Source: Minisyncoccota bacterium
GTDB taxonomy: Bacteria; Patescibacteriota; Minisyncoccia; Phycocordibacterales; UBA2100
Length of the DNA stretch: 64,000 bases
Assembly: GCA_035708165.1 (NCBI GenBank)
Contig: DASSSZ010000001.1
Coordinates: 230,884 to 294,883 of the forward strand
Direction: 5' to 3'
Made by a program: the position numbers and the translations under genes. Shown here one piece after another: positions 1 to 64,000 of this stretch; position 1 is the stretch's first letter, and every line of letters begins with the position of its first letter. Under the pieces are notes generated by a model that made no database searches, had not been told where the DNA came from, and worked only from the letters and a program-made list of their open reading frames with translations.

Positions 1-2797
1 GCGCCGCGACGACGCCGACCGCCTCGCCGAGATCCACGAGCTCGCCCGTCGAGAGATCGTTGCCGTAGCACAGCTGGCAGACGCCGCGCAGCGTCCGGCA
101 CGTCATCGGGGAGCGGATCACTGCCGAGGAGATGTGCGCCGCTTCGATCGCTTGCGCGTCGTCATGGCTCACGAGGTGGCCTTTCTTGAAGGCCGTCTCC
201 CCCGCCGTGAGCTCCTCGACGAGCGTGCGGCCGGCGATCTGGTCGGCCGCGAGTCCTGCGCCCGCCTCGCGCTCGGCGATGCTGACGCCCTCCTTCGTGC
301 CGCAGTCGTGCTCGAGGATGATGACATCCTGCGCCACATCGAAGAGGCGGCGCGTGAGGTAGCCGGCCTTCGCCGTGTTGAGCGCGGTGTCGGCCATGCC
401 CTTGCGGGCGCCGTGGGTCGAGATGAAGTACTCGATCGGCGTCATGCCCTCCTTCATCGAAGCGATGATCGGGAAATCGATCGTCTCGCCGCGCGGGTTC
501 GCGATCATGCCCTTCATGCCGGCCATCTGGTTCAGCTGGCCGAGCGAGCCGCGGGCGCCGGAGACGATCATGTTATGCACGGAGCTCGTCGGGACCATCT
601 GCGAAGCCAGCTTCTCCTGGATCTTGGCCTTCACGCCTTCCCAGATCTCGATCGTGAGGCGCTTGCGCTCATCCTCCGTGAGGAGGCCCTCCTCATACTG
701 CTCCCAGAGATGCTTCACCGCTTCCTGGCCCTCGGCCACGAGCGTCTGCTTCTCAGCAGGGACGACCACGTCCGAGAAGCTCCAGGTGATGCCGGCGACA
801 GTCGAGTACTTGAAGCCGAACGCCTTGATCTTATCGAGGATCGCCGGGATGCCCGAGAGGCCGTAGCGCTTCACGAGCTCGTTGATGAGGCGGCCCATGC
901 GCTTCTTGGTCATCTCGTCGTTGATGTACGGGAAGTCGTTCGGCAGGACCGTGTTGAAGAGGAGCCGGCCGACCGTCGTCTCGAACGGCTTGCCCTCGTA
1001 CTGCGCGTACTTCGGGTTGTCCGACGGCAGGAGAAGGATCTTCGCGCGCAGGTCCACGTCGCCGAAGTCGTGCGCGGTGATCGCGATGTTCGTGGACGGG
1101 AATGCCTTGCCCTCGCCCTTCGCGCCCTCGATGACTTGCGTCATCCAGTAGCAGCCGAGGATGATGTCCTGGCTGGGGCCGGTGACGACCTCGCCCGAAC
1201 CGGGCTTGAGCACGTTCTTGTTGGCCGACATGATCTCGCGCGCCTCCATCTGCGCCTGCTCGGAGAGCGGCACGTGGACCGAGACGGTGTCGCCGTCGAA
1301 GTCGGCGTTGTAGGCGGCACAGACCAAGGGGTGCATCTGGATCGCCGAGCCCTCGATGAGGGTCGGGCGGAAGGCCTGGAAGCTGAGGCGATGCAGCGTC
1401 GGGGCGCGGTTGAGGAGCACGTACTTGCCCTCGATCACCTCCTCGAGGATCGCCCACACCTCCGGGACGCCGTCCTCGATGAGGCGGCCGGCGCCGCGGA
1501 TGTTGAACGCAAGCTCGCGCTCAAGGAGCCCATGGATGACGAACGGGCGGAAGAGCTCGAGCGCCATGTGCTTCGGGAGCCCGCACTCGTCGAGCGCGAG
1601 ATCCGGACCGACGACAATGACCGAGCGGCCCGAGTAGTCCACGCGCTTGCCGAGGAGGTTCTGGCGGAAGTAGCCCTGCTTGCCCTTGAGGTAGTCGGCG
1701 AGCGACTTCAGCGGGCGGCGGCGTCCGCCGAGGATGCCCGAGGTGCCGCCTCCGCGGCGCATCGAGTTGTCGAGGAGCGCGTCCACTGCTTCCTGCAGGA
1801 TGCGCTTCTCGTTGCGCAGGATCACTTCCGGCGCATGGATCGCCATGAGCTTCTTCAGGCGGTTATTGCGGTTGATGACGCGGCGATAGAGGTCGTTGAG
1901 ATCCGAGCTCGCGTGACGGCCGCCTTCGAGGGCGACCATGGGCCGCAGCGCCGGCGGGACGACCGGCAGCACGGTCATGAACATCCACTCCGGACGCACG
2001 TCCGCCTTCAGCATGCTCTGCGCGAGCGCGATGCGCTTGCGGAGCTTCTCGCGGTCGACGGCGTTCGCGTCCTCGTACTGCTTCTGGAGCGCCTCGATGA
2101 AGGCCGCGAGGTCGAGATTCTTGAGGATGTCATAGAGTGCTTCCGCGCCGATCGCCGCCTCGAACATGGCGCCGTAGCGCACGGCGAACGTGTGGTACGC
2201 CGCTTCATCGAGGACGACGCCTTCCTTGATGGACTCGATGTCGCGCTTGGCTGCGGTCGCGAGCTCCTTGAGCCGCGTCTTCTCCTTAGCGTCGATGGCG
2301 GCCTTCACCTTCATCTGGAGCTCGTTCTCGAGCTCCCGGAGGAGGCGCTGCTTCTCGCTATCGTCCACCTTCGTGACGATGTAGCTCGCGAAGTAGACGA
2401 CCTTCTCGACGTCCGTCGCCGAGAGCCCCATGAGGAGCGCGATCCTGCTCGGGATGCCGCGCAGGAACCAGATGTGCGAGACCGGCGTCGCCAGCTCGAT
2501 GTGGCCCATGCGCTCGCGGCGCACGATGGCGCGCGTCACTTCGACGCCGCACTTCTCGCACTCGATGCCCTTGAAGCGGATGCCGCGGTACTTGCCGCAG
2601 TAGCACTCGTAGTCCTTCTCCGGACCGAAGATCTTCTCGTCGAAGAGGCCGTTCTTCTCCGGGCGCTGCGTGCGGTAGTTGATGGTCTCAGGCTTCGTGA
2701 CCTCGCCGTGGCTCCACTCGAGGATGCGCTCCGGGGACGCGAGGCTGACCAGCAGCTTGTCGAACGTCTGCGGGATGATGTCTGCGTGTTTCTTCAT
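1..2797 (-). CDS. rpoC: DNA-directed RNA polymerase subunit beta-prime, N-terminal ~930 aa (C-terminus lies beyond window start)
   Basis: Minus-strand translation from ATG at 2795-2797 gives MKKHADIIPQTFDKLLVSLASPERILEWSHGEVTKPETINYRTQRPEKNGLFDEKIFGPEKDYECYCGKYRGIRFKGIECEKCGVEV..IELATPVSHIWFL (beta-prime zinc finger and N-terminal clamp motifs). The listed plus-strand ORF 134..2815 is its antisense shadow. The start follows the rpoB TAA stop by 1 nt. Confidence 0.93.
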   Translation of the reverse strand, partial: MKKHADIIPQTFDKLLVSLASPERILEWSHGEVTKPETINYRTQRPEKNGLFDEKIFGPEKDYECYCGKYRGIRFKGIECEKCGVEVTRAIVRRERMGHIELATPVSHIWFLRGIPSRIALLMGLSATDVEKVVYFASYIVTKVDDSEKQRLLRELENELQMKVKAAIDAKEKTRLKELATAAKRDIESIKEGVVLDEAAYHTFAVRYGAMFEAAIGAEALYDILKNLDLAAFIEALQKQYEDANAVDREKLRKRIALAQSMLKADVRPEWMFMTVLPVVPPALRPMVALEGGRHASSDLNDLYRRVINRNNRLKKLMAIHAPEVILRNEKRILQEAVDALLDNSMRRGGGTSGILGGRRRPLKSLADYLKGKQGYFRQNLLGKRVDYSGRSVIVVGPDLALDECGLPKHMALELFRPFVIHGLLERELAFNIRGAGRLIEDGVPEVWAILEEVIEGKYVLLNRAPTLHRLSFQAFRPTLIEGSAIQMHPLVCAAYNADFDGDTVSVHVPLSEQAQMEAREIMSANKNVLKPGSGEVVTGPSQDIILGCYWMTQVIEGAKGEGKAFPSTNIAITAHDFGDVDLRAKILLLPSDNPKYAQYEGKPFETTVGRLLFNTVLPNDFPYINDEMTKKRMGRLINELVKRYGLSGIPAILDKIKAFGFKYSTVAGITWSFSDVVVPAEKQTLVAEGQEAVKHLWEQYEEGLLTEDERKRLTIEIWEGVKAKIQEKLASQMVPTSSVHNMIVSGARGSLGQLNQMAGMKGMIANPRGETIDFPIIASMKEGMTPIEYFISTHGARKGMADTALNTAKAGYLTRRLFDVAQDVIILEHDCGTKEGVSIAEREAGAGLAADQIAGRTLVEELTAGETAFKKGHLVSHDDAQAIEAAHISSAVIRSPMTCRTLRGVCQLCYGNDLSTGELVDLGEAVGVVAA

Positions 2798-2798
2798 A

Positions 2799-5700
2799 TT
2801 AGTAGAGGGAGTTAGCTGCCGACTCGTCGCCCTGGGCGCCGTCGAAGTGGATATCGATCCCGAGGCCGCGCAGGTGCCGGACCACGACGTTGAACGTCGC
2901 CGGCGTGTTGCTCTCGGTGATGCGCTTGCCGGAGACGATCGCATCGAACGCGGCAGAGCGGCCGAGGATGTCGTCGGACTTGATGGTGAGGATCTCGCGG
3001 AGCGTGTGCGCCGCGCCGTAGCCGAGGAAGGCCCAGACCTCCATCTCGCCGACGCGCTGGCCGCCCGACTGCGCCTTGCCGCCCAGCGGCTGCTGCGTGG
3101 TGAGCGAGTACGGGCCGATCGAGCGCATGTGGATCTTATCCTCGACCATGTGGTGGAGCTTCAGCATGTACATCATGCCGACGGCGATCGGCTGGCCGAA
3201 GCTCTCGCCGGTGCGGCCGTCGAAGAGCTCCTGCTTGCCGCTCTCGGCGAAGCCGGCCTTCACGAGCTCCTCGCGGATCTCCTCCTCGGAGGCGCCGGCG
3301 AAGCTCGGGACCACCGCCTGGTAGCCCAGGGCGTCTGCCGCGAGCCCGAGGTGGAACTCGAGGATCTGGCCGAGGTTCATGCGGGACGGCACGCCGAGAG
3401 GCGTCAGGATCATGTCGATCGGGTTGCCGTCCTTATCGAACGGCATGTCCTCCTCCGGCAGGATGCGGGAGATGACGCCCTTGTTGCCGTGGCGGCCGGC
3501 GAGCTTGTCGCCCACCGAGATGGTGCGCAGCTCGGCGACTTCCACGTGCACGCGCTTGATGACGCCGCTCTCGAGCTGGTCGCCGTTCTCGCGGCTGAAC
3601 ACCTTCACGCCGACCACGCGGCCGCGCTTGCCGGCGTCCATGCGCAGGCTGGTGTCCTTCACGTCCTTCGCCTTCTCGCCGAAGATCGAGTGCAGGAGGC
3701 GCTCTTCCGGCGTCAGCTGCGTCTCGCCCTTCGGGGTCACCTTGCCGACGAGGATATCGCCGGGGCGGACCTCCGCGCCGATGCGGACGATGCCGTCCTC
3801 ATCGAGGTTGCGGAGCTTGAACTCCGAGACGTTCGGGATGTCGTGGGTGGTGAGCTCTGGCCCGAGCTTGGTGTCGCGCACGACGCACTCGAACTCCTCC
3901 ATGTAGATGGAGGTGAAGCGCGCCTCCTTCGCGAGCCGCTCGGAGATGATGATGGCGTCCTCGTAGTTGTTGCCGGCCCAGGACATGAACGCGATGCGCA
4001 CGTTCTGGCCGATCGCGAGCTGGCCGTTCTCGGACGTCGAGCAGTCCGCCAGCACGTCGCCGCGGGAGACCTTCTCCCCCATCGAGACAGCCGGGCGCTG
4101 GTGCAGGACCGTCGAGTCGTTGCTGCGGGCGAAGTTCACGAGCGGGTACTCGATCGCCGTGCCCTTGGCGTTGGTGACGATGACCTTCTTCGCGTCCACG
4201 GCCGTCACGGTGCCTGCCTCCTTTGCAAGCACGAGGCGGCCCGAGTCGCGGGCGGTCGCCTCCTCGACGCCGGTCGCGACGAGCGGGGCCGACGGCAGCA
4301 CGCACGGCACTGCCTGCTTCTGCATGTTCGAGCCCATGAGGGCGCGGTTGGCGTCATCGTGCTCGATGAACGGGATGAGCGCGGTCGCCACGGAGAACGG
4401 CTGGTTGGTCGCCACCTCCATGAAGTCCACCTCCTCGCGCGATACGAGGATCGGCTCGCCTTCCTTGCGCACCTCCACCTGCTCGACCGTGATGCGGCCG
4501 GCGGCGTCGCGCGGGGTGCCGGCGTGCGCGATCGCGTAGCGCTCCTCGTCGAGCGCGTTCATGTAGGCGATCTCGCTCGTGATGACGCCGTTCTTGACCT
4601 TCGCGTACGGCGTCTCGATGATGCCGAACTCGTTCGGGCGCGCGTAGAGCGCCATGCGCAGCACGAGGCCGATGTTCTTTCCTTCCGGCGTGTGGATCGG
4701 GCACGCGCGGCCGTAGTGGCTCGAGTGCACGTCGCGTACCTCGAGCCCGGCGCGCTCGCTCGAGAGGCCGCCCTGGCCGAGCGTCGAGAGCGTGCGCAGG
4801 TTCTCGATCTCGCCCAGCGTGTTGTGCTGCTCCATGAGCTGCGAGAGCTGATTGCTCGTGAAGAACTCCTTGACCGCGGCCTGGAACGGGCGCGGGTTGA
4901 TGCAGGAGACCGGGAGCACCGTCTCGATGTCCATCGTGGACATGCGATCCTGCGTGTTGCGCTTCATGCGGCTCATGCCGATGCGCATGCGCGCGGCGAT
5001 GAGCTCGCCGACGAAGCGGACGCGGCGGTAGCCCAGGTGGTCGATGTCATCCGGCTCTGCGTCCGGCTTCGCGTTCTGCGCGATGATGTGCGCGACGATC
5101 GCCATCATGTCATCCACGGTGAGCGTCCCCTTGCCCGTGATGCCCGCCTCGCTGGTGTCCCAGCCGAAGCGGCGGTTGATCGTGTAGCGGCCGACCTTCG
5201 AGAGGTCGTAGCGCTCGGACGAGAGCATGCCCTCGACGTATGCGCGCGCCGTCTCCGGCGTGGTGACGTCGCCGTCGCGCAGCCGGCGGTAGATCTCGAG
5301 CGCGCTCTCCTGCGCGTTCGTCGCGGTGTCGTGCGCGAGGCTCGCCTTGAGCGCATCCTCGCCGCCTTCGATCGCCTTGAAGCGCTTCTCGATCTCCTTC
5401 TCGTCGGTGAGTCCCATGACGCGCAGGAGGTCCGTGACCGGGAACTTGCGCTTACGGTCGATCTTCACGGAGATGCCGCCGTCCGGGTCGGACTCCACCT
5501 CGATCCACACGCCGCGCTGCGGGATCACCTTCGCCGCGAAGTATCCGACGCCCTTGTAGGGCACGGCGTCGAAGAAGACGCCGTAGCTCCTCGTGAGCTG
5601 CGGGACGATGACGCGCTCGACGCCGTTGATGATGAACGTGCCGTGGTCGGTCATCCACGGGAAATTCGCGAGGAAGATCTCCTGCTCCTTCTCTTCGCCG

Positions 5701-52686: not shown

Positions 52687-52781
52687 ATCATTTTCCTGAT
52701 TATGCGCACGCCTGCCACCCGGCCGTGCCGCTACTATGCCAGAAGTGTACCACCACCCCGGCTGCCAGATATCCACCATTT

Positions 52782-52856
52782 GCGGAGGTTAAACCTCCGC
52801 AGATCTGTCCTCTATTTTAGATTATTTATGGAGATGTGCGGAGGTTTAACCTCCGC
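52782..52856. repeat. two copies of REP-like palindrome GCGGAGGTT-w-AACCTCCGC (52782..52800, 52838..52856) downstream of RAYT-1
   Basis: Perfect 9-bp arms, seen directly. Confidence 0.85.
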
Positions 52857-52876
52857 AATTTCCGCGAACCCTGCCC

Positions 52877-53533
52877 TCATTCCACCCACTCTGGTTGCTT
52901 GAGCCATGCATCGAGTTCGCGTTCCATCCCGATTCCTCCGGAGAAATAATCCGGGAATGCAGCAGGATTGATGATTGACTGCTGTATGCGCTTGCGCCCG
53001 ACATAATCAGCATAGCTGGAATACTCATAATCACGCAGGCCATGAGCATCCACGATCTCCCGCGGATTGAGGTGGATATATGCGAAGAGGTACTTGAGGT
53101 GAGTATCTTCGGTCACGTGGCGAGCCTTGAATGAGGAACCGAACAGGGCGCCAGTGCGCTCATTCTTCTTATTGAAATACATGGTGTAAGAAGTCATCAG
53201 CCTCTGCATGAACTTGCTCACACCCTTCCCTTCACTGTCATTCTCGCGAACGAGGATATGAAAATGATTCGGCATCAAGCAATATGCGCCAATGTCCACC
53301 AGCGGCCTTCCTCGATCGAATGAGAAAACGGATGAGGAATCCGCGGAGGTTAAACCTCCGCGAGATCGCTTGATCTCGCGGATTTCAGTTCCCTTCTGGA
53401 CCGCATTGAACAGATACATGCCTTCGAGGAATCGCTGATACTCTGCTCCATCCCGATAGACTGGCATCTTCTCGACGCCGCGCGCATAGAGATGGTAGTA
53501 CTCACCCGGAGCGAATACGTAGTTGCGTGCCAT
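52877..53533 (-). CDS. REP-associated tyrosine transposase (RAYT; IS200/IS605 Y1-like HuH)
   Basis: YHLYARGV, AYCLMPNHFHILV (HuH) and YIHLNP (catalytic Tyr). Real start MARNYVF; upstream codons of the track ORF merely translate REP copies. Confidence 0.8.
   Translation of the reverse strand: MARNYVFAPGEYYHLYARGVEKMPVYRDGAEYQRFLEGMYLFNAVQKGTEIREIKRSRGGLTSADSSSVFSFDRGRPLVDIGAYCLMPNHFHILVRENDSEGKGVSKFMQRLMTSYTMYFNKKNERTGALFGSSFKARHVTEDTHLKYLFAYIHLNPREIVDAHGLRDYEYSSYADYVGRKRIQQSIINPAAFPDYFSGGIGMERELDAWLKQPEWVE
53343..53361. repeat. REP-A palindrome copy inside the RAYT-1 coding sequence (encodes RSRGGLTSA)
   Basis: GCGGAGGTTAAACCTCCGC in-frame within RAYT-1. Confidence 0.85.
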
Positions 53534-53554
53534 GACAAAAGCATAGCACAGCTT

Positions 53555-53618
53555 GCGGAGGTTAAACCTCCGGAACTTCGTACAAGGTTCGCAGAGATTG
53601 CGGAGGTTTAACCTCCGC
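53555..53618. repeat. two REP-A copies upstream of RAYT-1 (53555..53573 imperfect; 53600..53618)
   Basis: Seen directly. Confidence 0.8.
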
Positions 53619-53639
53619 AAGAAGAGATGATTAGATTAA

Positions 53640-54239
53640 TTAGATGAACTGCCAGGTCTGCATGATTCCCGCGAGCCACGCATCATCATCCTTATAAGTG
53701 GTCACCTCATAGAGGAAGCCGCCATGGATGAACCACACCTCGCGCGTATCCCCCATTACCGGGTTGTTCCCGAAGAACATCGTCCCCGTCACGCCATCTA
53801 TGACCACGCTCGTGGGCTGCGTGCGCACGCCGGAGGGCTCGTCGAGCAGGAACCGCGCATCGCTTATGGTCGAGCTCGCGTACGACACGATATACACCTG
53901 GAACGCATGCGTATCATCCGCATCTTCGAAGGTGATCGTGTGCCCGCCGCCCGCTTCATCGTACTCGGCGCCGGTGAGCGTATCGGGATAGAGCAGGGAG
54001 AAATGATAGACGGCATTGTGGTACTCGCGTTCGCCCTCCGGCACCGCGCGCGGGTGCGTGAGAGGCGCACGCGGCGCGGCGAATGCTGCAAGCGCGCGCG
54101 CCGGATCAGCGGCAAACGCAGCAGGCGCAGCCGCATGGCGAAGCCATGCGGCTGCGCCGATCACGATCAGAAGCACCGCCGCCGCGCACCCGGCGAGTAT
54201 CAGCTTCCGGTTCCCGAGCTGCCGCATCAATGGAACCAT
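53640..54239 (-). CDS. membrane-anchored hypothetical protein, paralog 1 (199 aa)
   Basis: N-terminal signal anchor. C-terminus REVWFIHGGFLYEVTTYKDDDAWLAGIMQTWQFI paralogous to 55459..56079. Start overlaps the stop of the Gly-rich gene. Confidence 0.55.
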   Translation of the reverse strand: MVPLMRQLGNRKLILAGCAAAVLLIVIGAAAWLRHAAAPAAFAADPARALAAFAAPRAPLTHPRAVPEGEREYHNAVYHFSLLYPDTLTGAEYDEAGGGHTITFEDADDTHAFQVYIVSYASSTISDARFLLDEPSGVRTQPTSVVIDGVTGTMFFGNNPVMGDTREVWFIHGGFLYEVTTYKDDDAWLAGIMQTWQFI

Positions 54240-55393
54240 ATCAATCCATGGAACTTGATCCTGCCGTGCAGACGGATGACGCGGCCGTCCGATGTGCCGC
54301 TGCCGCCCGTACCCTCATCCTCTTCTTCGCCGCCGCTCGTCGGCGCATACGTGATCACGATGAGCCCCTGACCGCCGGTGCCACCCGCGCCATTGTACGT
54401 GCCGGAAGAGCCTGAAGAGCCGCCGCCACCTCCGCCGCCTCCGTAAATGCCACCCGCGCCACCCACTCCATACGTGCTCACGGTCGTCTGGCCGTAATAC
54501 GCATTTCCTCCCCCGCCGCCTCCGCCTGCGCCATGCGTCGCATCCCATTCGGTGCCTGCACCGCCTGCACCGCCCGTTTGCGTGCCGCTCGCGGCATTGT
54601 TCTGGCCGGCGCCGCCGCCGCCCGCGCCATCCGTACCATCCGTCGCTGGAGTAGTATTCGTGCCCGCCGTGCCTCCGTCCACTCCGTTTCGATTATTCCC
54701 GCCGCTCCCGCCTGCGTGGTAAGACGGCGCAACCGGCGAATCACCCACCGTACCGCCATCCGCACCACCTCCGCCTGAGCCACCGACGTAGCCAGTCGCC
54801 GTCTCATTACTCCCGCCGTCCGCACCGTCGGCATTCGGCCCGGCCGCACCGCCTCCGCCTCCGGCGCCATAGTTGCCCGCGCCGCTATTGCCGCCATTGC
54901 CACCGTCGTAAGTAACCGTCCCGATGCTTCCAGATACCGCGCCGCCCGCACCGCCGTTCGTGGACGAGCCGTTGGCGCCGGCCGCCGCCCGCACCGTTGA
55001 AATGCTACCGAACCACGTATCCGCTCCCGAGCCGCCGGCTCCGATGGAATACGAGACGGAACCGGAGAGCCCTTCGAGATCCGATACCTCGGCATATGCG
55101 CCACCGCCTCCTCCGCCGCCGCCTTTCGAGTTTGCGCCCTTCGCTCCGTTGCCGCCTGCGCCGATCACCTCGATTGTATTCGTGTCCGACCAGTCGCTCG
55201 GGACCGTCCAGTTTGTCGCAGCAGTATCGGTGAGATACCCGCGACACTCACCGCCGCCGATATCTGACCCGAAATCGCACGTAGTCGCCTGCGCGATCGG
55301 AACCGCTGATACGAACGGCGCGAATGCGAGCGCCGCCGCCAGAGCCGATGCGCATGCGCGGCGCAGCATCCGTTCCAGCATCCCCTTCCTCAT
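54227..55393 (-). CDS. secreted glycine-rich protein (388 aa)
   Basis: Signal peptide MRKGMLERMLRRACASALAAALAFAPFVSAVPIAQA. N-module TTCDFGSDIGGGEC..WTVPSDW..TNTIEVIGAGGNGA. Long GGxGG tracts. TEWDATHGAGGGGGG..GQGLIVITYAP shared with the 947-aa protein. Confidence 0.6.
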   Translation of the reverse strand: MRKGMLERMLRRACASALAAALAFAPFVSAVPIAQATTCDFGSDIGGGECRGYLTDTAATNWTVPSDWSDTNTIEVIGAGGNGAKGANSKGGGGGGGGAYAEVSDLEGLSGSVSYSIGAGGSGADTWFGSISTVRAAAGANGSSTNGGAGGAVSGSIGTVTYDGGNGGNSGAGNYGAGGGGGAAGPNADGADGGSNETATGYVGGSGGGGADGGTVGDSPVAPSYHAGGSGGNNRNGVDGGTAGTNTTPATDGTDGAGGGGAGQNNAASGTQTGGAGGAGTEWDATHGAGGGGGGGNAYYGQTTVSTYGVGGAGGIYGGGGGGGGSSGSSGTYNGAGGTGGQGLIVITYAPTSGGEEEDEGTGGSGTSDGRVIRLHGRIKFHGLIWFH

Positions 55394-56086: not shown

Positions 56087-57904
56087 TCAATAGAGTCGCA
56101 CGCCTGTCAGCCGCACGTTGCCGAGCAGCCGGATGATCTTCCGTACCGCCGTTTCCGTCGTCGTCACGCTCGCAGTCGGGCTCCAGTCAGAGATGGTGCC
56201 GCCCGTGTCCTTCGCTTCCGCTCGGAAGGTGTACTCAGTCCCATGAGTAAGCCCGGTGACGGTCGTCCCATCCCATGCGGCATCCGTCTGCCAGACGGCA
56301 GTGGCCGATGGATCGCCGGAGGCGTCCACGTACTTCCCGTCCCAGCTCGAGTCGGTCGGAAGCGTAGTGGAGACCTGGATCGCGTAAGTCACAGAGGATT
56401 CGTTCCCATTCGCATCGTTGCTGAGCGTGACAGATGAATCGGTCTGGTCAGCGAGCGCAGGAGCACCAGGAGCGGTGAGTACGCTAGGGAGAGTACCGGT
56501 CCAGATGTCGCCTTGGTTGCTATCTGCTACCACAATCTTTCCATCTGAAGAAATGGCGATGCCGCCCCATGAACGAGCACCTGCCGCAGTTTGATCGGTC
56601 CAGGTGACCCCACCATCAGAAGATGTATAGATATCACCGCTTAGGGTTGCAAGCTTCATACCGTCTGAGGACATGACGATACTTCCCCACATACGAGCAC
56701 CTGCCGCAGTTTGATCGGTCCAGGTGACCCCACCATCAGAAGATGTATAGATATCACCACCGGAATAACTCGCTCCAAAATAATCTACGGCAGCAAGCTT
56801 CATACCATCCGAGGACATGGCGATGCCGTTCCAATAACGAGCACCTGCCGCAGTTTGATCGGTCCAGGTGACCCCACCATCAGAAGATGTATAGATATCA
56901 CCACCGCCCAAATCTACGGCAGCAAGCTTCATACCATCCGAGGACATGGCGATGCCGTTCCAATAACGAGCACCTGCCGCAGTTTGATCGGTCCAGGTGA
57001 CCCCACCATCAGAAGATGTGAATATGTCACCACCGGCACCACCTCCATTATCAATTGCTGCGAGATGCGTCCCATCTGCCGATAAGGCAATGAACGACCA
57101 GTCGCGCGATCCGGCGGCAGTCCGATCGATCCAGGTGACCCCACCATCAGAAGATGTGAATATGTCACCCCCATTGGTATTATTCCCATCATGCCCAGAC
57201 ACTGTCACAGCAAGATTCATACCATCCGAGGACATGGCGATACCAGCCCAGTAACGAGCACCTGCCGCAGTTTGATCGGTCCAAGTAACGCCGCCATCAG
57301 AAGATGTATAGATATCGCCGCCGGAAAGATTTGCCCCATAACCATCTGTCGCCACAAGATGTACGCCATCAGCACTTGAGGCGACAAACGACCAAGAGCG
57401 CGTTCCAGAGCCAGTCTGATCGGTCCATGTATATGTCTCCGAAGGAGCTGCTGCGGCTGTCGAGAAGCTCAAGATCGAACCGTACCCAGAGTCATTCCCG
57501 CCGCCGCTCTGCTGGGAATAAGCTCTGAAATAATATGTAGTATCGGCGGCGAGACCGCTCAATGCCACCAGGAAGGTTCCCGTCCCGACTGATATCGAGG
57601 GACAGGATGCGGTAGTGGTTGCCGTATCGCCACCGGAGAGCGTCGGCACAGTACCCCATGCGAAGTCACAGGCCAGTAGCGTCAGCCCACCCTGAGGGAG
57701 GGTAACAGAACCATTGAGCGTCGCCGCATCGCTTCCGACCGCGCTCGCAGCCGTCGTAGTGACCGTCGGCGGTAAAGAACCGCCTGGTGCTGCAGCAGCC
57801 GTTTGCGGATACGAGAAGAACAGAGCGGCAGCGAGTATATACACACCCGCAAGGACGGGCAGCAGCAAGACTGATTCAGCTATTTTCGCACGCAGTATCC
57901 TCAC
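56087..57904 (-). CDS. secreted FN3 - BNR/Asp-box beta-propeller repeat - FN3 protein (605 aa)
   Basis: Signal/anchor, FN3 (TTYYFRAYS). Seven or more ~46-aa repeats GGDIYTSSDGGVTWTDQTAAGARYWNGIAMSSDGMKLAAVD (S-x-D-x-G-x-T-W). C-terminal FN3 shared with the 947-aa protein. Confidence 0.7.
   Translation of the reverse strand: MRILRAKIAESVLLLPVLAGVYILAAALFFSYPQTAAAAPGGSLPPTVTTTAASAVGSDAATLNGSVTLPQGGLTLLACDFAWGTVPTLSGGDTATTTASCPSISVGTGTFLVALSGLAADTTYYFRAYSQQSGGGNDSGYGSILSFSTAAAAPSETYTWTDQTGSGTRSWSFVASSADGVHLVATDGYGANLSGGDIYTSSDGGVTWTDQTAAGARYWAGIAMSSDGMNLAVTVSGHDGNNTNGGDIFTSSDGGVTWIDRTAAGSRDWSFIALSADGTHLAAIDNGGGAGGDIFTSSDGGVTWTDQTAAGARYWNGIAMSSDGMKLAAVDLGGGDIYTSSDGGVTWTDQTAAGARYWNGIAMSSDGMKLAAVDYFGASYSGGDIYTSSDGGVTWTDQTAAGARMWGSIVMSSDGMKLATLSGDIYTSSDGGVTWTDQTAAGARSWGGIAISSDGKIVVADSNQGDIWTGTLPSVLTAPGAPALADQTDSSVTLSNDANGNESSVTYAIQVSTTLPTDSSWDGKYVDASGDPSATAVWQTDAAWDGTTVTGLTHGTEYTFRAEAKDTGGTISDWSPTASVTTTETAVRKIIRLLGNVRLTGVRLY
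56494..57322 (-). repeat. near-identical DNA tandem repeats (about 138-nt units) encoding the BNR blades
   Basis: Repeated GCACCTGCCGCAGTTTGATCGGTCCAGGTGACCCCACCATCAGAAGATGT.. blocks visible at about 56560, 56700, 56840, 56950, 57090 and 57250. Confidence 0.7.
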
Positions 57905-58051: not shown

Positions 58052-60877
58052 TTAGAAAAGCGCCATGCCGAAGAGGGTCGTACCGCCGAAGAGGATGACC
58101 GATTTCGCGATGTGCTCCGTCGTCGTCACGCCCCCGCTGCCGCTCCAGTCAGTCGTGATGCCGTCGCCGTTCTCTGCCTGCGATTCGATCGTGTACTGCG
58201 TGCCGCTCTGAAGGCCGGTCATCGTGGTCGCATCCCACGCTGCATCCGTCTGCCAGACAGGCGTCGCCGATGGATCGCCGGACGCATCCACATACATGCC
58301 GTCCCACGCGGAATCCGTAGGCGAAGACGCCGTCACCTTGATCGCGAAGAGCGTGTTGCTCGGATTGCCGTTCGCATCGTTCGCGATGTTCGCAGTGCTC
58401 TCGGTCTGACCGGAGAGCGAGGGCGTGCCGGGAGTATTGGCGAACGTGTACGCTTCCGCGACGCTGCTCGTCGCGGTGTAGTTCGGCGTCGGCGCAGAGT
58501 CGCGCGTCGTGATCGCGTAGCCGTAGCACTTGTTCACGTCGAGCCCGGTATCGGTGTAGGTCGCGCTCGTCTGCCAGCCGGAATCAGCGCCGCCCGTGCC
58601 TGCGTCACTTCCGCAGGCCTTGTAGGTGAAATCATATTCGACGGGCGTGGATGATGCATCGGTTGCTGTGGTTGCGGTCATGGTGATCGCAGAACTTGAA
58701 GTTGCAGCCGGCACGGAATCGAACGTCGCCGGATTCGGCGTGGGTGCAGTGGTGTCGGGAGGCGCCGATTGCGGCGTATAGATGATCACGATGATGCCCT
58801 GGCCGCCGGTACCGCCGGTACCGGCGGCACTGCCAGCCGCGCCAGCACCGCCGCCAGCACCGCCATACGTACCACCAGCGCCGCCATTTCCTGCATTATT
58901 GCCGAATCCCATTCCCGACCCGCCGCCGCCGCCGCCTGCGCCATGTGTGGCATCCCATTCAGTACCCGCGCCGCCTGCGCCGCCATTGCCTGAACTACCA
59001 GACTCCCAGCCATACCCAGAACCGGCGCCGCCACTTCCGTTGCTTCCGTTTCCGCCGGCGCTGCTGCTTCCCGAGGTTGACCCGTCCGATCCGATACCGC
59101 CAGCCGTGCCGGTCGTCCCTGCGCCGCCATTGCCACCCTTCGATGATGATCCGGCAGATCCGGCCGTGGAAGACCCTCCATCCGCTCCGCCGCCGCCGCC
59201 GGCGGTATTGGGCGTAGAGGCATATGGCTTTCCGCCGCCTTTGCCAGCGCCGAACGGGCCCGCGGCCCCGCCACCTCCGCCCCCACCGTATGGCGAGCTG
59301 CCAGACACGGCCGCGCCAGCTCCGCCTGCGTACAGCGTTGTCCCTACCGAATTGCTCGTGCTACCGCCCGCACCAGCAGTCTTCCCTGATGCGTTCGCTC
59401 CGTTCGCTGCTGCAACCGTGCTGCTCGTATCGAACCATGTCGTGCCGGAGCCAACGCCACCCGCACCGATCGAATACGCAACGGAGCTGCCTGGAGTGAG
59501 CGAGAGATTCGCGATTTTTGCGTACGCACCGCCGCCACCGCCTGCGCCAGCGTACGACTCAGCAACACTGTTTGCACCATTCCCTCCTGCACCGATCGCC
59601 TCGATCGTATTGTTCGTGCTATCCCAGTCATCCGGCACGGTCCAGCTCGTGCCTGAGGTGAGGAAGATGATGCACTCGGTTCCGTTATACACGGCGCCAG
59701 CGTCGCAGGTCACCGGTTCATCCTCTTCCTCTTCGTCCCCACCACCGAGCGATGTTTCCGCGCCGACCTCATAGAATGTGCTCGGGCTCGTTTCGGTGTC
59801 GTATGCGGCCGCGAGCCAATCGGCACTGCGCGCTACCGAGGAGATGCGGAATTCATCGATATCTCCCGTGAAATACGCGCTCCCCGATGAGCCGGATGAG
59901 ACGTCCGAACCGATGTTCAGGCCGCTCGTATCGCCTGCGTCGATACTCGAGCCCAAGCCGTTCGTCGTGCCTTTGAGCGTGCCGTCCGTATAACCCTTCA
60001 GCGTCCCTGCGGAGCCGTCGAAGACACCGGCGACCTGATGCCATGCGGAAGTCGAGAGCGTGCCGACGTTCGCGACCTCGTTCGCGCCGTCGATCTTCAC
60101 CAGAGGCCCCTGGTCCCCGGCACCGCTGAAGGAAAGCAGGAAGAGCTGATTGCTCAGCTCCATGGAGCGCTCGCCGCTGTATGAGCTCGATTTCACGAAC
60201 ATCGAGAAGGTCGCGGCGTTCCCTATCGCGGCACGCTGAGCCGTCGTCGTGTTGATATGCGCGTTCGTGCTGCCGGAGAAACTGGTCGCTTCGCCTGCGA
60301 TACCCGAGACGAGCGTCCCGCCGTCCTCCGTAGAGTCAGAGAAAGTGCCCGTCGAATCGACCAGAGTCGAGCCATCCATGTGCCAGACGCCAAGGAACCC
60401 GTTCGACCACACTGCCGGCGCATCCGACTGGTCCGTGGTAATGGAGGAATCGCCGTAGCAGAGATAGAAGGCGGTGTCGGACGTATGCGAGAGAGTCGGC
60501 AGTTTCACCCAGTACGTGACGGCCCCGGTCGAGGCATCATAGCTCTCCGTCTCCCAATCGAGCTTCGTGCTGCAGGAGGAATCGCTGTAGAAGCCGATGT
60601 CATAGCCGCTCGTATTCTGCGCATCGCCACCGTTCGCAGTCGTCGCGAGATAGCTGTACGTGCCGGAGACAAGTACCGGGAAATCGGTAAGATCCGATCC
60701 TACCGTACCGGAGGGGATGGTAATGGAGCGGGTATACGAGAAGCCGTCCGCATTGGCGAGCGCGGGCGAAAGCGCGTATGCGGTGGCGAAGATTGCCAAG
60801 CAAAGCAGCGCGACTCGCGCGGATGCGGTCGCGGGTGTGATGCGTCGTACGTGCGGTTGCGTATCAGGTTTTCTCAT
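58052..60877 (-). CDS. large secreted surface protein: DUF2341-like N-domain, LamG/ConA-like domain, glycine-rich module, FN3-like repeats, C-terminal hydrophobic tail
   Basis: Signal peptide MRKPDTQPHVRRITPATASARVALLCLAIFATAYALSPALANA (internal ATG). DGFSYTRSITIPS..LTDFPVLV..YWVKLP..AFYLCYGD (DUF2341-like). GDIDEFRISSVARSADWL (LamG-like). Gly-rich module with TEWDATHGAGGGGGG..GQGIIVIIYTP. C-terminal FN3-like SAWDGMYVDASGDPSATPVWQTDAAWDATT. Confidence 0.7.
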   Translation of the reverse strand: MRKPDTQPHVRRITPATASARVALLCLAIFATAYALSPALANADGFSYTRSITIPSGTVGSDLTDFPVLVSGTYSYLATTANGGDAQNTSGYDIGFYSDSSCSTKLDWETESYDASTGAVTYWVKLPTLSHTSDTAFYLCYGDSSITTDQSDAPAVWSNGFLGVWHMDGSTLVDSTGTFSDSTEDGGTLVSGIAGEATSFSGSTNAHINTTTAQRAAIGNAATFSMFVKSSSYSGERSMELSNQLFLLSFSGAGDQGPLVKIDGANEVANVGTLSTSAWHQVAGVFDGSAGTLKGYTDGTLKGTTNGLGSSIDAGDTSGLNIGSDVSSGSSGSAYFTGDIDEFRISSVARSADWLAAAYDTETSPSTFYEVGAETSLGGGDEEEEDEPVTCDAGAVYNGTECIIFLTSGTSWTVPDDWDSTNNTIEAIGAGGNGANSVAESYAGAGGGGGAYAKIANLSLTPGSSVAYSIGAGGVGSGTTWFDTSSTVAAANGANASGKTAGAGGSTSNSVGTTLYAGGAGAAVSGSSPYGGGGGGGAAGPFGAGKGGGKPYASTPNTAGGGGGADGGSSTAGSAGSSSKGGNGGAGTTGTAGGIGSDGSTSGSSSAGGNGSNGSGGAGSGYGWESGSSGNGGAGGAGTEWDATHGAGGGGGGSGMGFGNNAGNGGAGGTYGGAGGGAGAAGSAAGTGGTGGQGIIVIIYTPQSAPPDTTAPTPNPATFDSVPAATSSSAITMTATTATDASSTPVEYDFTYKACGSDAGTGGADSGWQTSATYTDTGLDVNKCYGYAITTRDSAPTPNYTATSSVAEAYTFANTPGTPSLSGQTESTANIANDANGNPSNTLFAIKVTASSPTDSAWDGMYVDASGDPSATPVWQTDAAWDATTMTGLQSGTQYTIESQAENGDGITTDWSGSGGVTTTEHIAKSVILFGGTTLFGMALF

Positions 60878-60895: not shown

Positions 60896-61600
60896 TCATT
60901 CTTCCCGCGCGTTAGAGGCTAAACCTCTAACGGGTGCGTCATGCATGTCCCCTTCCTCAAGCCAGTCATCTATATGCGCATCGAGGCTCCGCCGTGTCGA
61001 GAAGTATTCGGGGAACCTTGCCGGGTCAGTAATCACATGCCGCTTGCGATTATATTCGCCGAAGCTCGAGTACGGATATGTCTGCACGTATTCCCGCACC
61101 TTTTTGAAATCGCGAGAGCCGAATTCTTTCCAGTGCGGATCGACGAGTTTCGCCGGATTGAGATGAATATAGGAAAACAGGTACCGTGCATACCGATCAT
61201 CGAGCACATGCCTTGCCTTGAACGTGCCCTGGAAGAGCGCGCCGCTTCGCGCATGCCGCTCATTGAAATACATCGTGTAGGCGGTCTGCAGGCGCTGCAT
61301 GAATTTCGATATTCCATTTTCGACGAGCGGCGTCACATACAGGTGAAAGTGATTCGGCATGAGGCAATAGGCGCCGATCGCCACCAATGGCGCACCTTGT
61401 GTTAGTTTTAGAGGTTTAGCCTCTAACACATAATCGCGACGGATCTCGTGTGTCAGCCGAGGCGCAGCGGCATCATTCAGAACACAGAGGTAAGCCAGGA
61501 ACCGCTGGTATTCATCGGCGTTTGAGAAGATCTCGCGCTTATCCACCCCCCTATTATAGAGGTGGTAGTATTCTCCTTCGCTGAAAATGATACGTCTCAT
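60896..61600 (-). CDS. REP-associated tyrosine transposase paralog 2 (RAYT)
   Basis: YHLYNRGV, AYCLMPNHFHLYV and YIHLNP. Its stop abuts the start region of the 947-aa gene. Confidence 0.8.
   Translation of the reverse strand: MRRIIFSEGEYYHLYNRGVDKREIFSNADEYQRFLAYLCVLNDAAAPRLTHEIRRDYVLEAKPLKLTQGAPLVAIGAYCLMPNHFHLYVTPLVENGISKFMQRLQTAYTMYFNERHARSGALFQGTFKARHVLDDRYARYLFSYIHLNPAKLVDPHWKEFGSRDFKKVREYVQTYPYSSFGEYNRKRHVITDPARFPEYFSTRRSLDAHIDDWLEEGDMHDAPVRGLASNAREE
60911..60931. repeat. REP-B palindrome GTTAGAGG-ctaaa-CCTCTAAC inside the last codons of RAYT-2 (encodes VRGLASNA)
   Basis: Seen directly. Confidence 0.85.
61407..61425. repeat. REP-B palindrome TTAGAGGTTTAGCCTCTAA inside RAYT-2 CDS (encodes LEAKPLK), at the position homologous to the REP-A insertion in RAYT-1
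   Basis: Seen directly; alignment of the two RAYT proteins places both intragenic REPs between EIR(E/R) and PLV(D/A)IGAYCLMPNHFH. Confidence 0.85.
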
Positions 61601-61615
61601 ACTGTATGGAAGATA

Positions 61616-61667
61616 TTTAGAGGCTTAGCCTTATTTAGAGGTATTTTAGAGGTTTAGCCTCTAAAAG
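61616..61667. repeat. cluster of REP-B copies (degenerate half at 61616..61631, TTTAGAGGTA at 61634..61643, full TTTTAGAGGTTTAGCCTCTAAAA at 61645..61667) upstream of RAYT-2; supplies the stop codon of the tail-fibre-like gene
   Basis: Seen directly. The TAA stop of the 61654.. gene lies in the REP loop (GGC-TAA-ACC). Confidence 0.8.
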
Positions 61668-64000
61668 AGGTGGCTGAGGTCGGGGTCGAGGTCGAAGCCG
61701 GAGTTTCTGTCGTGGGCACGGTTGCAGTTGCAGTTGTCGTTGTCGTTGCGGTCGAGCTTGCCGGGTCGAACATATCTTCAGGCGAGGGTGACGAACTGCC
61801 ATCCGGGGTCGAGCTCGCATCCCCTGCCTTCGGCGTCGCGGGCGCCGTGCGTGCGGTATCGCTCTCTGGCGTGCTCGTGGCGTTCCCGCCGATACCACCG
61901 CTCGTCGCGCTCGTCGAAGTCGCGGCGCTGCCCTCCCCTGCCCCCTGCTCATCCTCCTCGGTGCTCGTCGCTGCGGTCGAGCTCGCGTCCCCCACGATCA
62001 CGGTGCGCGTCGCGGTCGTCGTGTTGCCGTCCTGGTCGGTCGCGCTGTAGAGGATCGTGTGCGTGCCCGGCGCCGAGGTGTCGAGCGAGATCAAGCCCGG
62101 CGTCGTGGTCGCGCCTCCGTCAACAGACGCGCTGATGCCGAGATTCATGTTCGTGCCGTCGACGACCGTCTCGCCCACGTCGTTGTACGCCGCACCCACC
62201 GCGATGTGCGCCGGATTCGCGCCGAGGATGGTGATGACCGGCACCGTAGAGCTCGCGGTCTCCGCGGCCGGTGCGGCTGCCGCCTGGCTCGCCAAGACCG
62301 CGGCGAGCTGATCGCCCGTCACGCACACGTCCGTGCCATCGCTCTTCGTCACGCAGAGCTCCTTCGTGTGCACGCGGTTCGCGAAGAAGTCGCCGATGCC
62401 GTTGCCTGCCGACGCGAACCATTGCGCGAGCGCGAGCTTCATATCACCCGAGATCTGCACCATCTGCTGTACTTGCGCATTCAGCTCCTGCAGCGCCTGC
62501 AGCATGAGCCACTGCACATCGCCGTACTTCACTTCGTACATGCTGCTGCTCGCGTCGACCGTCACCAATTCCGGTGCGACCGTGAGTACCTGCTGCGCGA
62601 TCAGGCCGTGATAGGTGGTGGAGGTTGCCGTCTTGTAGGCGAAGGAATTGACCTGCAGCCCTGCGATCTGCGCAAGGGCGGTCGTCGAGCCTTGGTCGAA
62701 GGAGAGCGGCGTGATGTCGGTCTTCAGGCGCTCGTCGGAGGCGCAGGTGCCCAAGGTACCCGAGTTGTAGTAGATGCAGCCCCAGTTCAGGCCGGAGGCG
62801 CCGAGGTTGTAGCTCGACGCCGCACTCGGCGTGATGGAGCCGGCGATTTGAAGCTTCGATGCAGGTGATGTGACACCGATGCCGACGTTGCCGCCCTGCG
62901 ACCCGTTCAGGAGAAGCGAGCCCGAACCCTGTACCGCTACCTGATTCGCTGAGATCTGCAATGCGGATCCCGACGCACCGAAGCTCGCAGCCCACCCCGA
63001 TGATTGTGCCACGTGCAGTGGCGTTATCGGATCGGTCGTCCCGATCCCGACGAAGCCGTTGCTCAAGAGCCGCATGTTCTCGATGAACGAGGTGCCATTG
63101 TACGAATCGAATGCGAGGCCGCGATTCGTGCCGTCATTGATCGCGTTGATGCCGCCCGTCGAATTGGTGACGCCCGGATTGTTCGAGGTCGCACCGGAGA
63201 AGCGCAAGAGCGGCGTGGTGCGCTCGACCGAGAGATCGGTGTTATCGACGATCACTGCTGCAGGCTTCGTGTCGTCCGCGCTATTGAGCATCGTGTAATC
63301 GGTATCGCCCGAGGGGTTCAATGCAGGGCCCGTCATGATGCCTGCGCCGAAGCTGACCCGGTTGCTCCCGCCGATCGAGACCGCGGAATTGGTCACGGAG
63401 AAGATCGACGTGCCGTATTGGTCATAGACGCCGAGCAAGGTGCCGCCTGCACCGCCATTCGCTTGCGAGATGACGAGACCATTGCCTTGGTCGTTGCCGC
63501 CGATGCGCGCCTGCGCGGTCTCCGGTTTGTTGCCCGTCGTCCAGTTGTATGCCTGATCGCTACTTTCGATTGTGGTCGTCCCGGCGACGGTGAGAAGTGA
63601 GGAAGGTGTGGAGGTTCCGATGCCGACGTTGCCATTCGTCAGCATCTCAAGGATGGTGCCGACAGAGTTATCTATGCGCAGCGCTTCATGATAGTCATTG
63701 CTGTTAAGGAAACCGTAGAGACCGTTGCCGGATGAGTTGTTCTGATCGAAGCGCATCGCGTAGCCACTTGAAGCATTATTGCTGCTCACGTAGAGCGTCG
63801 CGCCAGTCGGGGCGGTGCCGATGCCGACGTTACCGGTCGATGCGAGGTAGAGCGTGCTGTTCGGCGTATTCGGCTCCAAGTAGAACGGATTCTTATCATG
63901 CGTCGCGTCGTAAAAGGTGAGGCCACCCGAGGTATCGTTCGAGAACGACCATGCTTGCGTATTATTACCATTCACCAGCTGGAAATTCGCCGATTGGCTG
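61654..64000 (-). CDS. tail-fibre-like surface protein with Peptidase_S74-like intramolecular chaperone domain, Ig-like domain and S/T/A-rich tail (N-terminus beyond window)
   Basis: Repeated NVGIGT.P...L.VAG beta-helix motifs. SDERLKTDITPL (S74 SDxRLK autoproteolysis motif), then coiled-coil VKYGDVQWLMLQALQELNAQVQQMVQ. Ig-like VITILGANPAHIAVGAAYNDVGETVVDGT..TRTVIV, then a low-complexity tail. The frame stays open to the window edge. Confidence 0.7.
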   Translation of the reverse strand, partial: SQSANFQLVNGNNTQAWSFSNDTSGGLTFYDATHDKNPFYLEPNTPNSTLYLASTGNVGIGTAPTGATLYVSSNNASSGYAMRFDQNNSSGNGLYGFLNSNDYHEALRIDNSVGTILEMLTNGNVGIGTSTPSSLLTVAGTTTIESSDQAYNWTTGNKPETAQARIGGNDQGNGLVISQANGGAGGTLLGVYDQYGTSIFSVTNSAVSIGGSNRVSFGAGIMTGPALNPSGDTDYTMLNSADDTKPAAVIVDNTDLSVERTTPLLRFSGATSNNPGVTNSTGGINAINDGTNRGLAFDSYNGTSFIENMRLLSNGFVGIGTTDPITPLHVAQSSGWAASFGASGSALQISANQVAVQGSGSLLLNGSQGGNVGIGVTSPASKLQIAGSITPSAASSYNLGASGLNWGCIYYNSGTLGTCASDERLKTDITPLSFDQGSTTALAQIAGLQVNSFAYKTATSTTYHGLIAQQVLTVAPELVTVDASSSMYEVKYGDVQWLMLQALQELNAQVQQMVQISGDMKLALAQWFASAGNGIGDFFANRVHTKELCVTKSDGTDVCVTGDQLAAVLASQAAAAPAAETASSTVPVITILGANPAHIAVGAAYNDVGETVVDGTNMNLGISASVDGGATTTPGLISLDTSAPGTHTILYSATDQDGNTTTATRTVIVGDASSTAATSTEEDEQGAGEGSAATSTSATSGGIGGNATSTPESDTARTAPATPKAGDASSTPDGSSSPSPEDMFDPASSTATTTTTATATVPTTETPASTSTPTSATSFRG

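Follow-up and report, generated by a model that had tools for sequence, protein, structure and literature searches.

Domain layout of the fibre protein

The window analysed in this study is a stretch of 64,000 nucleotides from a Minisyncoccota bacterium (GenBank assembly GCA_035708165.1, contig DASSSZ010000001.1, positions 230,884 to 294,883), and at its far edge lies a gene for a fibre-like protein with a Peptidase_S74 (S74) domain and an Ig-like domain. The gene is encoded on the minus strand (61654..64000), with a frame that is open from 63999 at the window edge down to a TAA stop at 61654-61656. The 781 visible codons correspond to the C-terminal part of the protein, at least 781 amino acids (aa, numbered here from the first visible codon), and the N-terminus lies beyond the edge. 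We regard the product as very probably a surface fibre of the cell and not the product of a prophage gene.

From its N-terminal side, the visible protein consisted of a shaft (aa 1-407, 62779..63999), a loop from Cys408 to Cys419 just before the cleavage serine (62743..62778), an S74 chaperone/protease domain with a long C-terminal helix (aa 421-531, 62407..62739), a Cys549-x9-Cys559 beta-hairpin with a short helix (62278..62367), an Ig-like domain (aa 587-670, 61990..62241) and an acidic low-complexity tail of 109 aa (61657..61983), all on the minus strand. The four cysteines of the visible part fall into two close pairs, 408/419 and 549/559. The first-pass annotation of this DNA, made from the letters alone, had noted NVGIGT-type repeats (four copies were located, at aa 56, 123, 315 and 370), the motif SDERLKTDI (aa 421-429), a coiled coil (the long helix at aa ~492-531 in our structure model), an Ig-like domain and a tail rich in Ser, Thr and Ala, and each of these elements was recovered. 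The hidden Markov model (HMM) search that it had suggested for an S74 domain matched PF13884 Peptidase_S74 at aa 421-480 (E 2e-11, 44.4 bits against a cut-off of 22, full model 1-58), and the Ig-like domain was assigned by Pfam to PF16403 Bact_surface_Ig-like at aa 589-669 (E 1e-11, 45.2 bits against a cut-off of 27). Homologues of the fibre protein numbered 331; the best one in the protein collection was 45% identical and no exact copy was present there, while GTDB genomes scanned with the single fibre protein gave no close relative.

The shaft is put together in mosaic fashion from modules of ~100-130 aa. Each module centres on a GNVGIGTxxPxxxLxV loop motif, and module-wise phmmer searches found these modules in differing number and shuffled order among the homologues. 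This shuffling precluded a whole-shaft alignment, and the shaft model therefore covered aa 260-425 only. The motif has the form G-x-V-G-I-G-(T/V)-x-x-P/x-x-x-L-x-V and occurs four times on the minus strand: GNVGIGTAPTGATLYV (aa 56-71, 63787..63834), which belongs to the DNA repeat family D16, GNVGIGTSTPSSLLTV (aa 123-138, 63586..63633), which aligns with GNLGLGTAAPTSALHV of the Bdellovibrio protein Bd2133, GFVGIGTTDPITPLHV (aa 315-330, 63010..63057) and GNVGIGVTSPASKLQI (aa 370-385, 62845..62892). PHROG tail-fibre families matched both the shaft (phrog_9942, aa 52-302, E 3e-15) and the S74 region.

The AlphaFold2 (AF2) model of shaft residues 260-425 was all-beta with a predicted local distance difference test score (pLDDT) of 74. 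The 13 best Foldseek matches of this model in the PDB were all fibres of the Bdellovibrio mosaic adhesive trimer (MAT) type, namely Bd2133, Bd3182, Bd1334 and Bd2439 (entries 8OND, the best with E 1.9e-6, 8ONC, 8OML and 8ONF), and the fibres of T4 (gp34), Mu and T5 ranked behind them. By sequence, too, Bd2133 (8OND) was the best PDB match of the shaft, with the loop motifs as the aligned part. Among solved structures, the MAT surface fibres of Bdellovibrio are the closest to the shaft.

B. bacteriovorus displays 21 trimeric MAT fibres of ~1,000 aa on its surface, which carry a signal peptide, a conserved N-terminal beta-rich domain of ~130 aa and beta-helical shafts with capping-loop motifs of the form V-G-G/N-pi-x-x-P-x-x-x-L; 13 of the 21 terminate in S74 and the others in another adhesive tip, and Bd3182 cleaves itself at Ser782, a reaction abolished by S782A (Caulton et al. 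2024, PMC10769870). The window fibre resembles them as a chromosomal, non-phage fibre of ~1,000 aa that is presumably exported, as its homologues suggest, with a beta-structured shaft of mosaic modules and repeated V/L-G-x-G-T-x-x-P-x-x-x-L loop motifs, an S74 domain with an SDxxxK dyad, and the possibility of several copies per genome. It differs in that the proline of its loop motif is off by one register from the consensus printed in PMC10769870, and in that the MAT members with S74 end in this domain whereas the window fibre continues for ~250 residues. The combination of S74 and Ig is absent among the tips given in the main text of that paper, the N-terminal regions of full-length homologues of the window fibre look different (signal or transmembrane segment, S/T/P-rich linker and helical neck), and the host belongs to Paceibacterota, a monoderm-type lineage of the Candidate Phyla Radiation (CPR), in contrast to a Gram-negative predator.

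The S74 domain was studied with an alignment of 27 C-terminal modules from the fibre and its relatives, which gave a profile of 304 positions. Its SDERLK motif (aa 421-426, 62722..62739, minus strand) contains the Ser421/Lys426 dyad, and both residues were invariant in 27 of 27 modules, with Asp422 and Arg424 at least 90% conserved. The profile matched the solved S74 structures 8JOV (2e-14), the MyRF ICA domain 7DC3 (4e-13), 6F45 (2e-12) and 3GUD of GA-1, and the dyad aligned with SDERLK of 8JOV, SDRRIK of 6F45 and ADLRAK of the MyRF chain 7DC3. An AF2 monomer model of aa 395-690 had a mean pLDDT of 76 (81-95 in the S74 core and the Ig part, below 55 in the linkers). In it the S74 core is rich in beta structure and is followed by a helix of 40 residues, a hairpin of two strands with a helix, and an Ig sandwich. 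We consider it likely that the S74 domain cleaves itself. The Cys408/Cys419 pair next to the cleavage serine is common to the closest relatives, and we take it to be a putative disulfide.

The S74 chaperones of phages (K1F endosialidase, T5 pb1, GA-1 gp12 and the long tail fibre of S16) belong to the same Pfam family as the window domain and have its Ser-x4-Lys dyad, its GxxAQ motif and its long C-terminal helix. The solved phage chains, however, end soon after this helix (at 437 of 439 residues in 8JOV and 195 of 204 in 6F45), whereas the S74 of the window fibre is internal and ~250 residues follow its helix; the phage-type arrangement with S74 at the extreme C-terminus is not found here, and the window protein, unlike its phage counterparts, is chromosomal and probably exported. 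An internal S74 is known from the eukaryotic membrane-bound transcription factor MYRF, which has a transmembrane helix downstream of it (PMC3742443), and in structure the model of the window S74 came closest to the MyRF ICA domain 7DC3 (chain 7DC3_B, Foldseek E 3e-4, 136 columns, target template modelling (TM) score 0.59). In MYRF/MrfA as in the window fibre, self-cleavage at an internal S74 would separate two multi-domain fragments. The two proteins differ in that MYRF/MrfA is cytoplasmic, with a DNA-binding domain upstream and a transmembrane helix downstream, whereas the window protein is probably extracellular, with a shaft upstream and an Ig domain and hydrophilic tail downstream. No transmembrane anchor was present C-terminal to S74 in the window fibre, whose tail is acidic and without a hydrophobic stretch.

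Behind S74, Cys549 of the hairpin (ELCVTKSDGTDVCVTGDQLAAVLA) was invariant and Cys559 at least 90% conserved among the 27 modules. The Ig part gave Foldseek matches to BT2262 (5FQ8_G), Big_3 (2KPN), PKD, SraP, Rib, SlpX, SbsB and S-layer domains. The PF16403/Big_3-like proteins that it resembles by HMM and fold, such as BT2262 of the Bacteroides SusCD complex and the B. cereus Big_3 domain 2KPN, are not fibres and lack S74, and it is the combination of S74 and Ig that defines the present family. Within the module the Ig domain is the best-conserved segment, with a mean pairwise identity of 52%, followed by the S74 core (44%), the hairpin (38%) and the helix (28%). The tail is composed of 25% Thr, 19% Ser and 17% Ala (61% together) with a net charge of -10, and the tails of homologues are similar in kind with lengths of 1-70 aa.

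The S74-hairpin-Ig family and its chromosomal setting

In the 27 aligned modules the order of elements was fixed: S74, a long helix, a Cys-x(4-10)-Cys hairpin with a short helix, a low-complexity linker, a PF16403 Ig domain and an S/T-rich tail. Searched against 1.84 billion cluster representatives, the profile retrieved 2,641 proteins at E <= 1e-30, and in at least ~115 of the best 150 cluster representatives the whole profile matched in one stretch at the extreme C-terminus. Proteins matching the whole profile ranged from 300 to 3,300 aa, and the family comprises hundreds of clusters at 50% identity. For GTDB genomes the pattern search used a subset of the alignment, the full set being too diverse, and dozens of matches covered the complete module from S74 to Ig. 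The carriers were Patescibacteria (Kaiserbacteria, with four copies in one metagenome-assembled genome (MAG), Minisyncoccia, Paceibacterota and Saccharibacteria) and Alphaproteobacteria (Xanthobacteraceae, Hyphomicrobiales and Methylocystis, including the chromosome of Methylocystis parvus).

In the viral collections, 32 INPHARED records matched the module as a protein query and none covered 80% or more of it, and the best 80 of 194 IMG/VR relatives found with the module alignment matched the S74 part only; all of these matches ended by query residue ~156, before the hairpin and the Ig domain. Within the viral matches listed, the S74-hairpin-Ig module appears to be cellular only. The first-pass annotation had called an S74 that is not C-terminal unusual, and this holds relative to phages; among the cellular relatives the arrangement is common and conserved, and the S74 of MYRF is internal as well (PMC3742443). 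A full-text literature search for S74 together with Patescibacteria or CPR returned nothing on an S74-Ig family, and a Patescibacteria transposon sequencing paper does not mention S74 or tail-fibre proteins. No paper describing this large family was found in the literature searched, and its parts themselves are familiar.

The window as a whole carries housekeeping genes (rpoB, RNase R, SMC, dnaE, thrS, gyrB, pheT, prfA, L25, aldolase, transketolase, rpe and GAPDH), and its RpoB and GyrB are identical to HET8581079.1 and HET8581102.1 of a Candidatus Paceibacterota MAG, encoded there on a contig of 302,555 bp. Locus tag VFL98_01525, at 53.6 kb of the window, stands for approximately gene 305; with some one gene per kb, the contig probably ends not far from the window edge, within the fibre gene. 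Ten open reading frames (ORFs) occupy the 12 kb downstream of the fibre gene (49.9-61.6 kb), and none of them matched a phage structural Pfam family. They include two Y1_Tnp/RAYT genes, LamG/DUF2341, BNR/fn3, GAPDH, Rpe and a pilin; the remaining ones are an ORF overlapping GAPDH on the other strand and two without a Pfam match. The order from the fibre gene is a RAYT-like Y1 transposase, LamG/DUF2341, BNR/fn3, the two without a Pfam match and the second RAYT. A PHROG scan of six downstream ORFs found no structural family, only pilin and families of unknown function. Both scans agree with the first-pass statement that no other phage genes occur in the 10 kb downstream.

The locus is conserved in a Kaiserbacteria genome, where contig MFLP01000023.1 keeps the order fibre, RAYT, GAPDH ... 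TktN, TktC, PfkB, L25, with identities to the window of 67% for GAPDH, 67% for TktN, 59% for TktC, 55% for PfkB, 54% for L25, 48% for RAYT and 37% for Rpe, and the syntenic fibre (P0098) has the same S74-Ig module. Capsid, terminase, portal and tail genes were absent from six homologue loci, viewed with up to 10 kb of flanking sequence per side; among them are a Rhizobiaceae chromosome, in which the gene neighbours ruvABC, and Methylocystis parvus M6-2022, whose chromosome is complete. The flanks of the five loci other than the syntenic Kaiserbacteria one hold transposases, integrases and ArdC, and in Methylocystis a GH5 glycosidase. A signal peptide or N-terminal hydrophobic anchor was found in the homologues P0004, P0006, P0010, P0011, P0017, P0030 and P0033, and also in fibre ORFs of the contigs L018, L022, L026, L030, L039, L042, L049 and L053. 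Virion proteins assembled in the cytoplasm carry no signal peptides.

The synteny, the phage-free homologue loci, the signal peptides, the absence of the module from the viral matches listed and the MAT relatives are the reasons why we read the gene as cellular, as the first-pass annotation had done in describing a fibre-like protein outside a prophage. The competing possibility is that it encodes an ordinary tail fibre of a prophage, a tailocin or an extracellular contractile injection system (eCIS) with its remaining genes outside the visible sequence. Matches to PHROG tail-fibre families and an S74 domain are usual in phage fibres, S74 can also be carried by eCIS fibres (PMC12923769), RAYT and other mobile-element genes lie nearby, and the upstream side is outside the window. 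Against this, the 61 kb of the visible side are ordinary chromosome, the site beside GAPDH is shared with a Kaiserbacteria genome in which the housekeeping proteins show 54-67% identity, the six homologue contexts lack structural phage genes, the homologues have the signal peptides that cytoplasmically assembled virion proteins do without, and INPHARED and the listed IMG/VR matches do not contain the S74-hairpin-Ig module. A tail fibre of this kind is accordingly very unlikely. The earlier term 'domesticated' presupposes a direction from phage to cell, and the role as an adhesin is a presumed one.

Several further observations were made at the homologue loci. On the Kaiserbacteria contig (L007), a 1,280-aa ORF (39-3881) lies upstream of P0098 (3868-6699) and is also shaft (phrog_9942, E 1e-25); it starts in the middle of a motif where the contig ends, and it shares 14 nt with P0098, read in another frame. 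The pair represents either two neighbouring genes or a single fibre of more than 2,200 aa that a frameshift has divided. Since the upstream ORF continues as shaft to the contig end, long repetitive fibre genes seem to break assemblies, probably in both genomes. In Methylocystis parvus (L042, 10729-12174) and on the contig of P0017 (L002, 13799-16222), the fibre gene is followed by a gene for a secreted fn3-like (Pur_ac_phosph_N) protein. In Methylocystis this downstream gene overlaps the fibre gene (L042, 6758-10732; NZ_CP187161.1) by 4 nt and encodes a GH5 glycosidase, and fibre and polysaccharide hydrolase may be a functional pairing.

Fusions of a helix-turn-helix (HTH) domain, a transmembrane segment and a fibre, which would resemble MYRF, were considered among the homologues and rejected. 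The Pfam matches were weak (HTH_17 with 26.9 bits against a cut-off of 27, LexA with E 0.01), and an internal Met with a signal peptide directly follows the HTH-like residues, so that the fusions are most likely an artefact of taking the longest ORF. HTH-like residues in frame upstream of a signal peptide or transmembrane segment were seen in L013 (811-7488), L028 (3356-11257) and at the N-terminus of P0089, and recur in unrelated genomes.

Adjacent RAYT genes, REP hairpins and secreted proteins

The direct downstream neighbour of the fibre gene is the RAYT-like Y1 transposase RAYT1 (60896..61600, minus strand, PF01797 E 1.2e-7), the counterpart of the 48% identical RAYT beside the Kaiserbacteria fibre gene. 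At the 3' end of the fibre gene lies a hairpin of the repetitive extragenic palindromic (REP) type, TTAGAGGTTTAGCCTCTAA (61646..61664), whose loop holds the fibre stop codon and which supplies the last 3-4 codons (FRG-stop). The REP element thus sets the present C-terminus of the fibre, and it probably also serves as a terminator-like hairpin. The same hairpin occurs at 60912 and 61408, giving three copies around and inside RAYT1 (60896-61664). RAYT2 (52781-53624) has a REP hairpin of its own, GCGGAGGTTWAACCTCCGC, with five copies around and inside the gene. In both RAYTs one hairpin lies within the ORF, and the Y1_Tnp Pfam match covers profile positions ~41-119, beginning just past this hairpin. 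A 90-nt tRNA-Leu(taa) was called by ARAGORN at 53319-53408 on the plus strand, inside the RAYT2 ORF; it is centred on a REP hairpin, the loop of which supplies the 'anticodon', no Rfam match reached the gathering threshold there, and the call was discarded as a probable false positive.

The position of the stop codon inside a REP hairpin raises the alternative that the gene is a decaying remnant, a pseudogene fragment without function whose end was altered by the REP/RAYT element. The missing exact copy in the protein collection, with a best match of 45% identity, and a tail longer than those of relatives would fit such a remnant. On the other side, the frame stays open for 781 codons although the DNA has ~62% G+C, S74, hairpin and Ig keep every invariant residue, both Pfam domains are full length, and the same sequence was assembled independently from SRR25158513. 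For the RAYT gene, the LamG gene and a 199-aa neighbour this run gave short Logan contigs only (L001 of 5.3 kb and L004 of 2.8 kb), none of them extending past the upstream side of the window. We consider decay scarcely credible.

The LamG/DUF2341 protein, the BNR/fn3 protein and a Gly-rich protein of 388 aa, all encoded near the fibre gene, have signal peptides. They end in similar C-terminal tags of 15-17 aa (VILFGGTTLFGMALF, IIRLLGNVRLTGVRLY and VIRLHGRIKFHGLIWFH), encoded at the gene 3' ends on the minus strand (58052-58099, 56087-56137 and 54227-54280). A six-frame regular-expression scan of the window found the tag in these three secreted proteins only, and the fibre is without it; the tag has the look of a C-terminal signal, so far undescribed, for sorting or anchoring. 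An additional similarity between the BNR and LamG proteins is an fn3-like C-terminal segment (56154-56359 and 58116-58321; 206 nt, 72% identical). Within the BNR gene, 6-8 tandem repeats of 120-150 nt correspond to Asp-box blades (56506-57430), and the LamG gene and the gene for the 388-aa protein share Gly-rich repeat families of the GGAGG type (54405-55165 and 58842-59552).

Proposed assembly of the fibre and its meaning

We propose, as the probable course of events, that the protein is an exported, trimeric, MAT-like fibre in which S74 templates folding and then cuts off the C-terminal fragment. The chain would be exported by way of an N-terminal signal peptide or membrane anchor of the kind present in full-length homologues. 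Outside the membrane, S74 (aa 421-531) would align three chains and template the upstream beta shaft from the C- towards the N-terminal side, analogous to phage spikes, MYRF and Bd3182. The Ser421/Lys426 dyad would then cut the chain at Ser421 and free a fragment of 361 aa that contains the chaperone, the disulfide hairpin, the Ig-like domain and the acidic S/T-rich tail and would be lost from the fibre. In the mature fibre the last shaft module (aa ~300-420) would be the exposed tip, binding surfaces or other cells. Hairpin, Ig domain and tail would extend the disposable assembly module in a way specific to exported fibres of cells. We infer trimerisation, templating, cleavage and loss of the fragment from the behaviour of studied S74 domains and the invariant dyad; export and adhesion are likewise presumed.

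Several observations weigh against this proposal. The Foldseek matches to MAT fibres have TM-scores of ~0.3 with a high root-mean-square deviation, which denotes local similarity only; the low scores can be attributed to the comparison of a monomer model with intertwined trimer chains. The N-terminal domain that defines MAT proteins would fall in the part of the fibre outside the window. The N-terminus and the upstream neighbours of the gene also lie there, so that homologues and synteny are the basis for export and for the lack of phage genes upstream. Cleavage in the S74-Ig subfamily is a prediction from the dyad. The family also occurs in free-living Alphaproteobacteria, and no role specific to CPR episymbiosis is implied. 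Finally, a strongly conserved Ig domain after the cleavage site fits poorly with a discarded fragment, and the domain may serve an independent purpose.

The conservation of the Ig domain can be read in two ways. Because it is the best-conserved segment while the shafts are mosaic and variable, we lean, at slightly less than even confidence, to the reading that Ig and tail belong to the assembly module and not to the working tip. The opposite reading is that S74 only or mainly trimerises and the C-terminal fragment is retained, uncleaved or non-covalently bound, with the Ig domain and a possibly glycosylated S/T tail as a distal adhesin or brush. This would account for the Ig conservation, for its resemblance to domains of adhesins and S-layer proteins (SraP, Rib, SlpX and SbsB) and for a module that is intact in well over a hundred protein clusters. 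It is opposed by the Ser/Lys dyad, which is invariant in all 27 modules, and by the finding that tested S74 domains with an intact dyad cleave themselves, as in Bd3182 and the S74 proteins cited with it and in MYRF (PMC10769870, PMC3742443). A receptor-binding tip would moreover be expected to vary between paralogues, whereas the Ig domain is the least variable part, and it is joined by low-complexity linkers of low model confidence. Retention of the fragment as a tip is therefore rather improbable.

A third course, modelled on MYRF, would have the Ig domain and S/T tail hold the precursor at the envelope until S74 cleavage frees a lectin- or bacteriocin-like trimeric fibre into the medium. 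Stretches rich in Ser and Thr frequently span cell walls. The signal peptides of several homologues, with AxA sites, look cleavable and would leave a free N-terminus, and the internal S74 of MYRF divides the protein into a functional N-terminal trimer and a C-terminal part that is anchored (PMC3742443). In the window fibre, however, no transmembrane segment, LPXTG or other known anchor follows S74, the tail being acidic with a non-hydrophobic end, the C-terminal tag of the neighbouring secreted proteins is absent from the fibre, and the tails of homologues are as short as 1-4 aa. We judge such a release to be quite unlikely.

Returning to a fragment that is cut off after assembly, we offer tentatively the suggestion that the part behind S74 adapts a chaperone of the phage type, which works in the cytoplasm, to Sec-exported chains folding outside the cell, or that it forms a removable cap whose loss unmasks the adhesive fibre. 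If this were true, S74 cleavage would yield two functional products, as it does in MYRF, and the family would represent widespread, cell-specific, self-processing surface fibres across Patescibacteria and Alphaproteobacteria.

In conclusion, the fibre varies known parts, being a MAT-like S74 fibre in which a conserved Ig module stands behind S74, and introduces no new principle. To our knowledge, attachment and recognition in CPR/Patescibacteria are largely unexplained, and few candidate surface structures have been named beyond type IV pili. With its conserved chromosomal site, the MAT-like fibre of Paceibacteria is a candidate surface fibre for CPR biology, and it extends the MAT concept beyond the predatory Bdellovibrio. 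It also provides a bacterial parallel to MYRF, in which an internal S74 splits a protein in two, and since the module is present in the cultivable Methylocystis parvus, its cleavage and function are directly testable.

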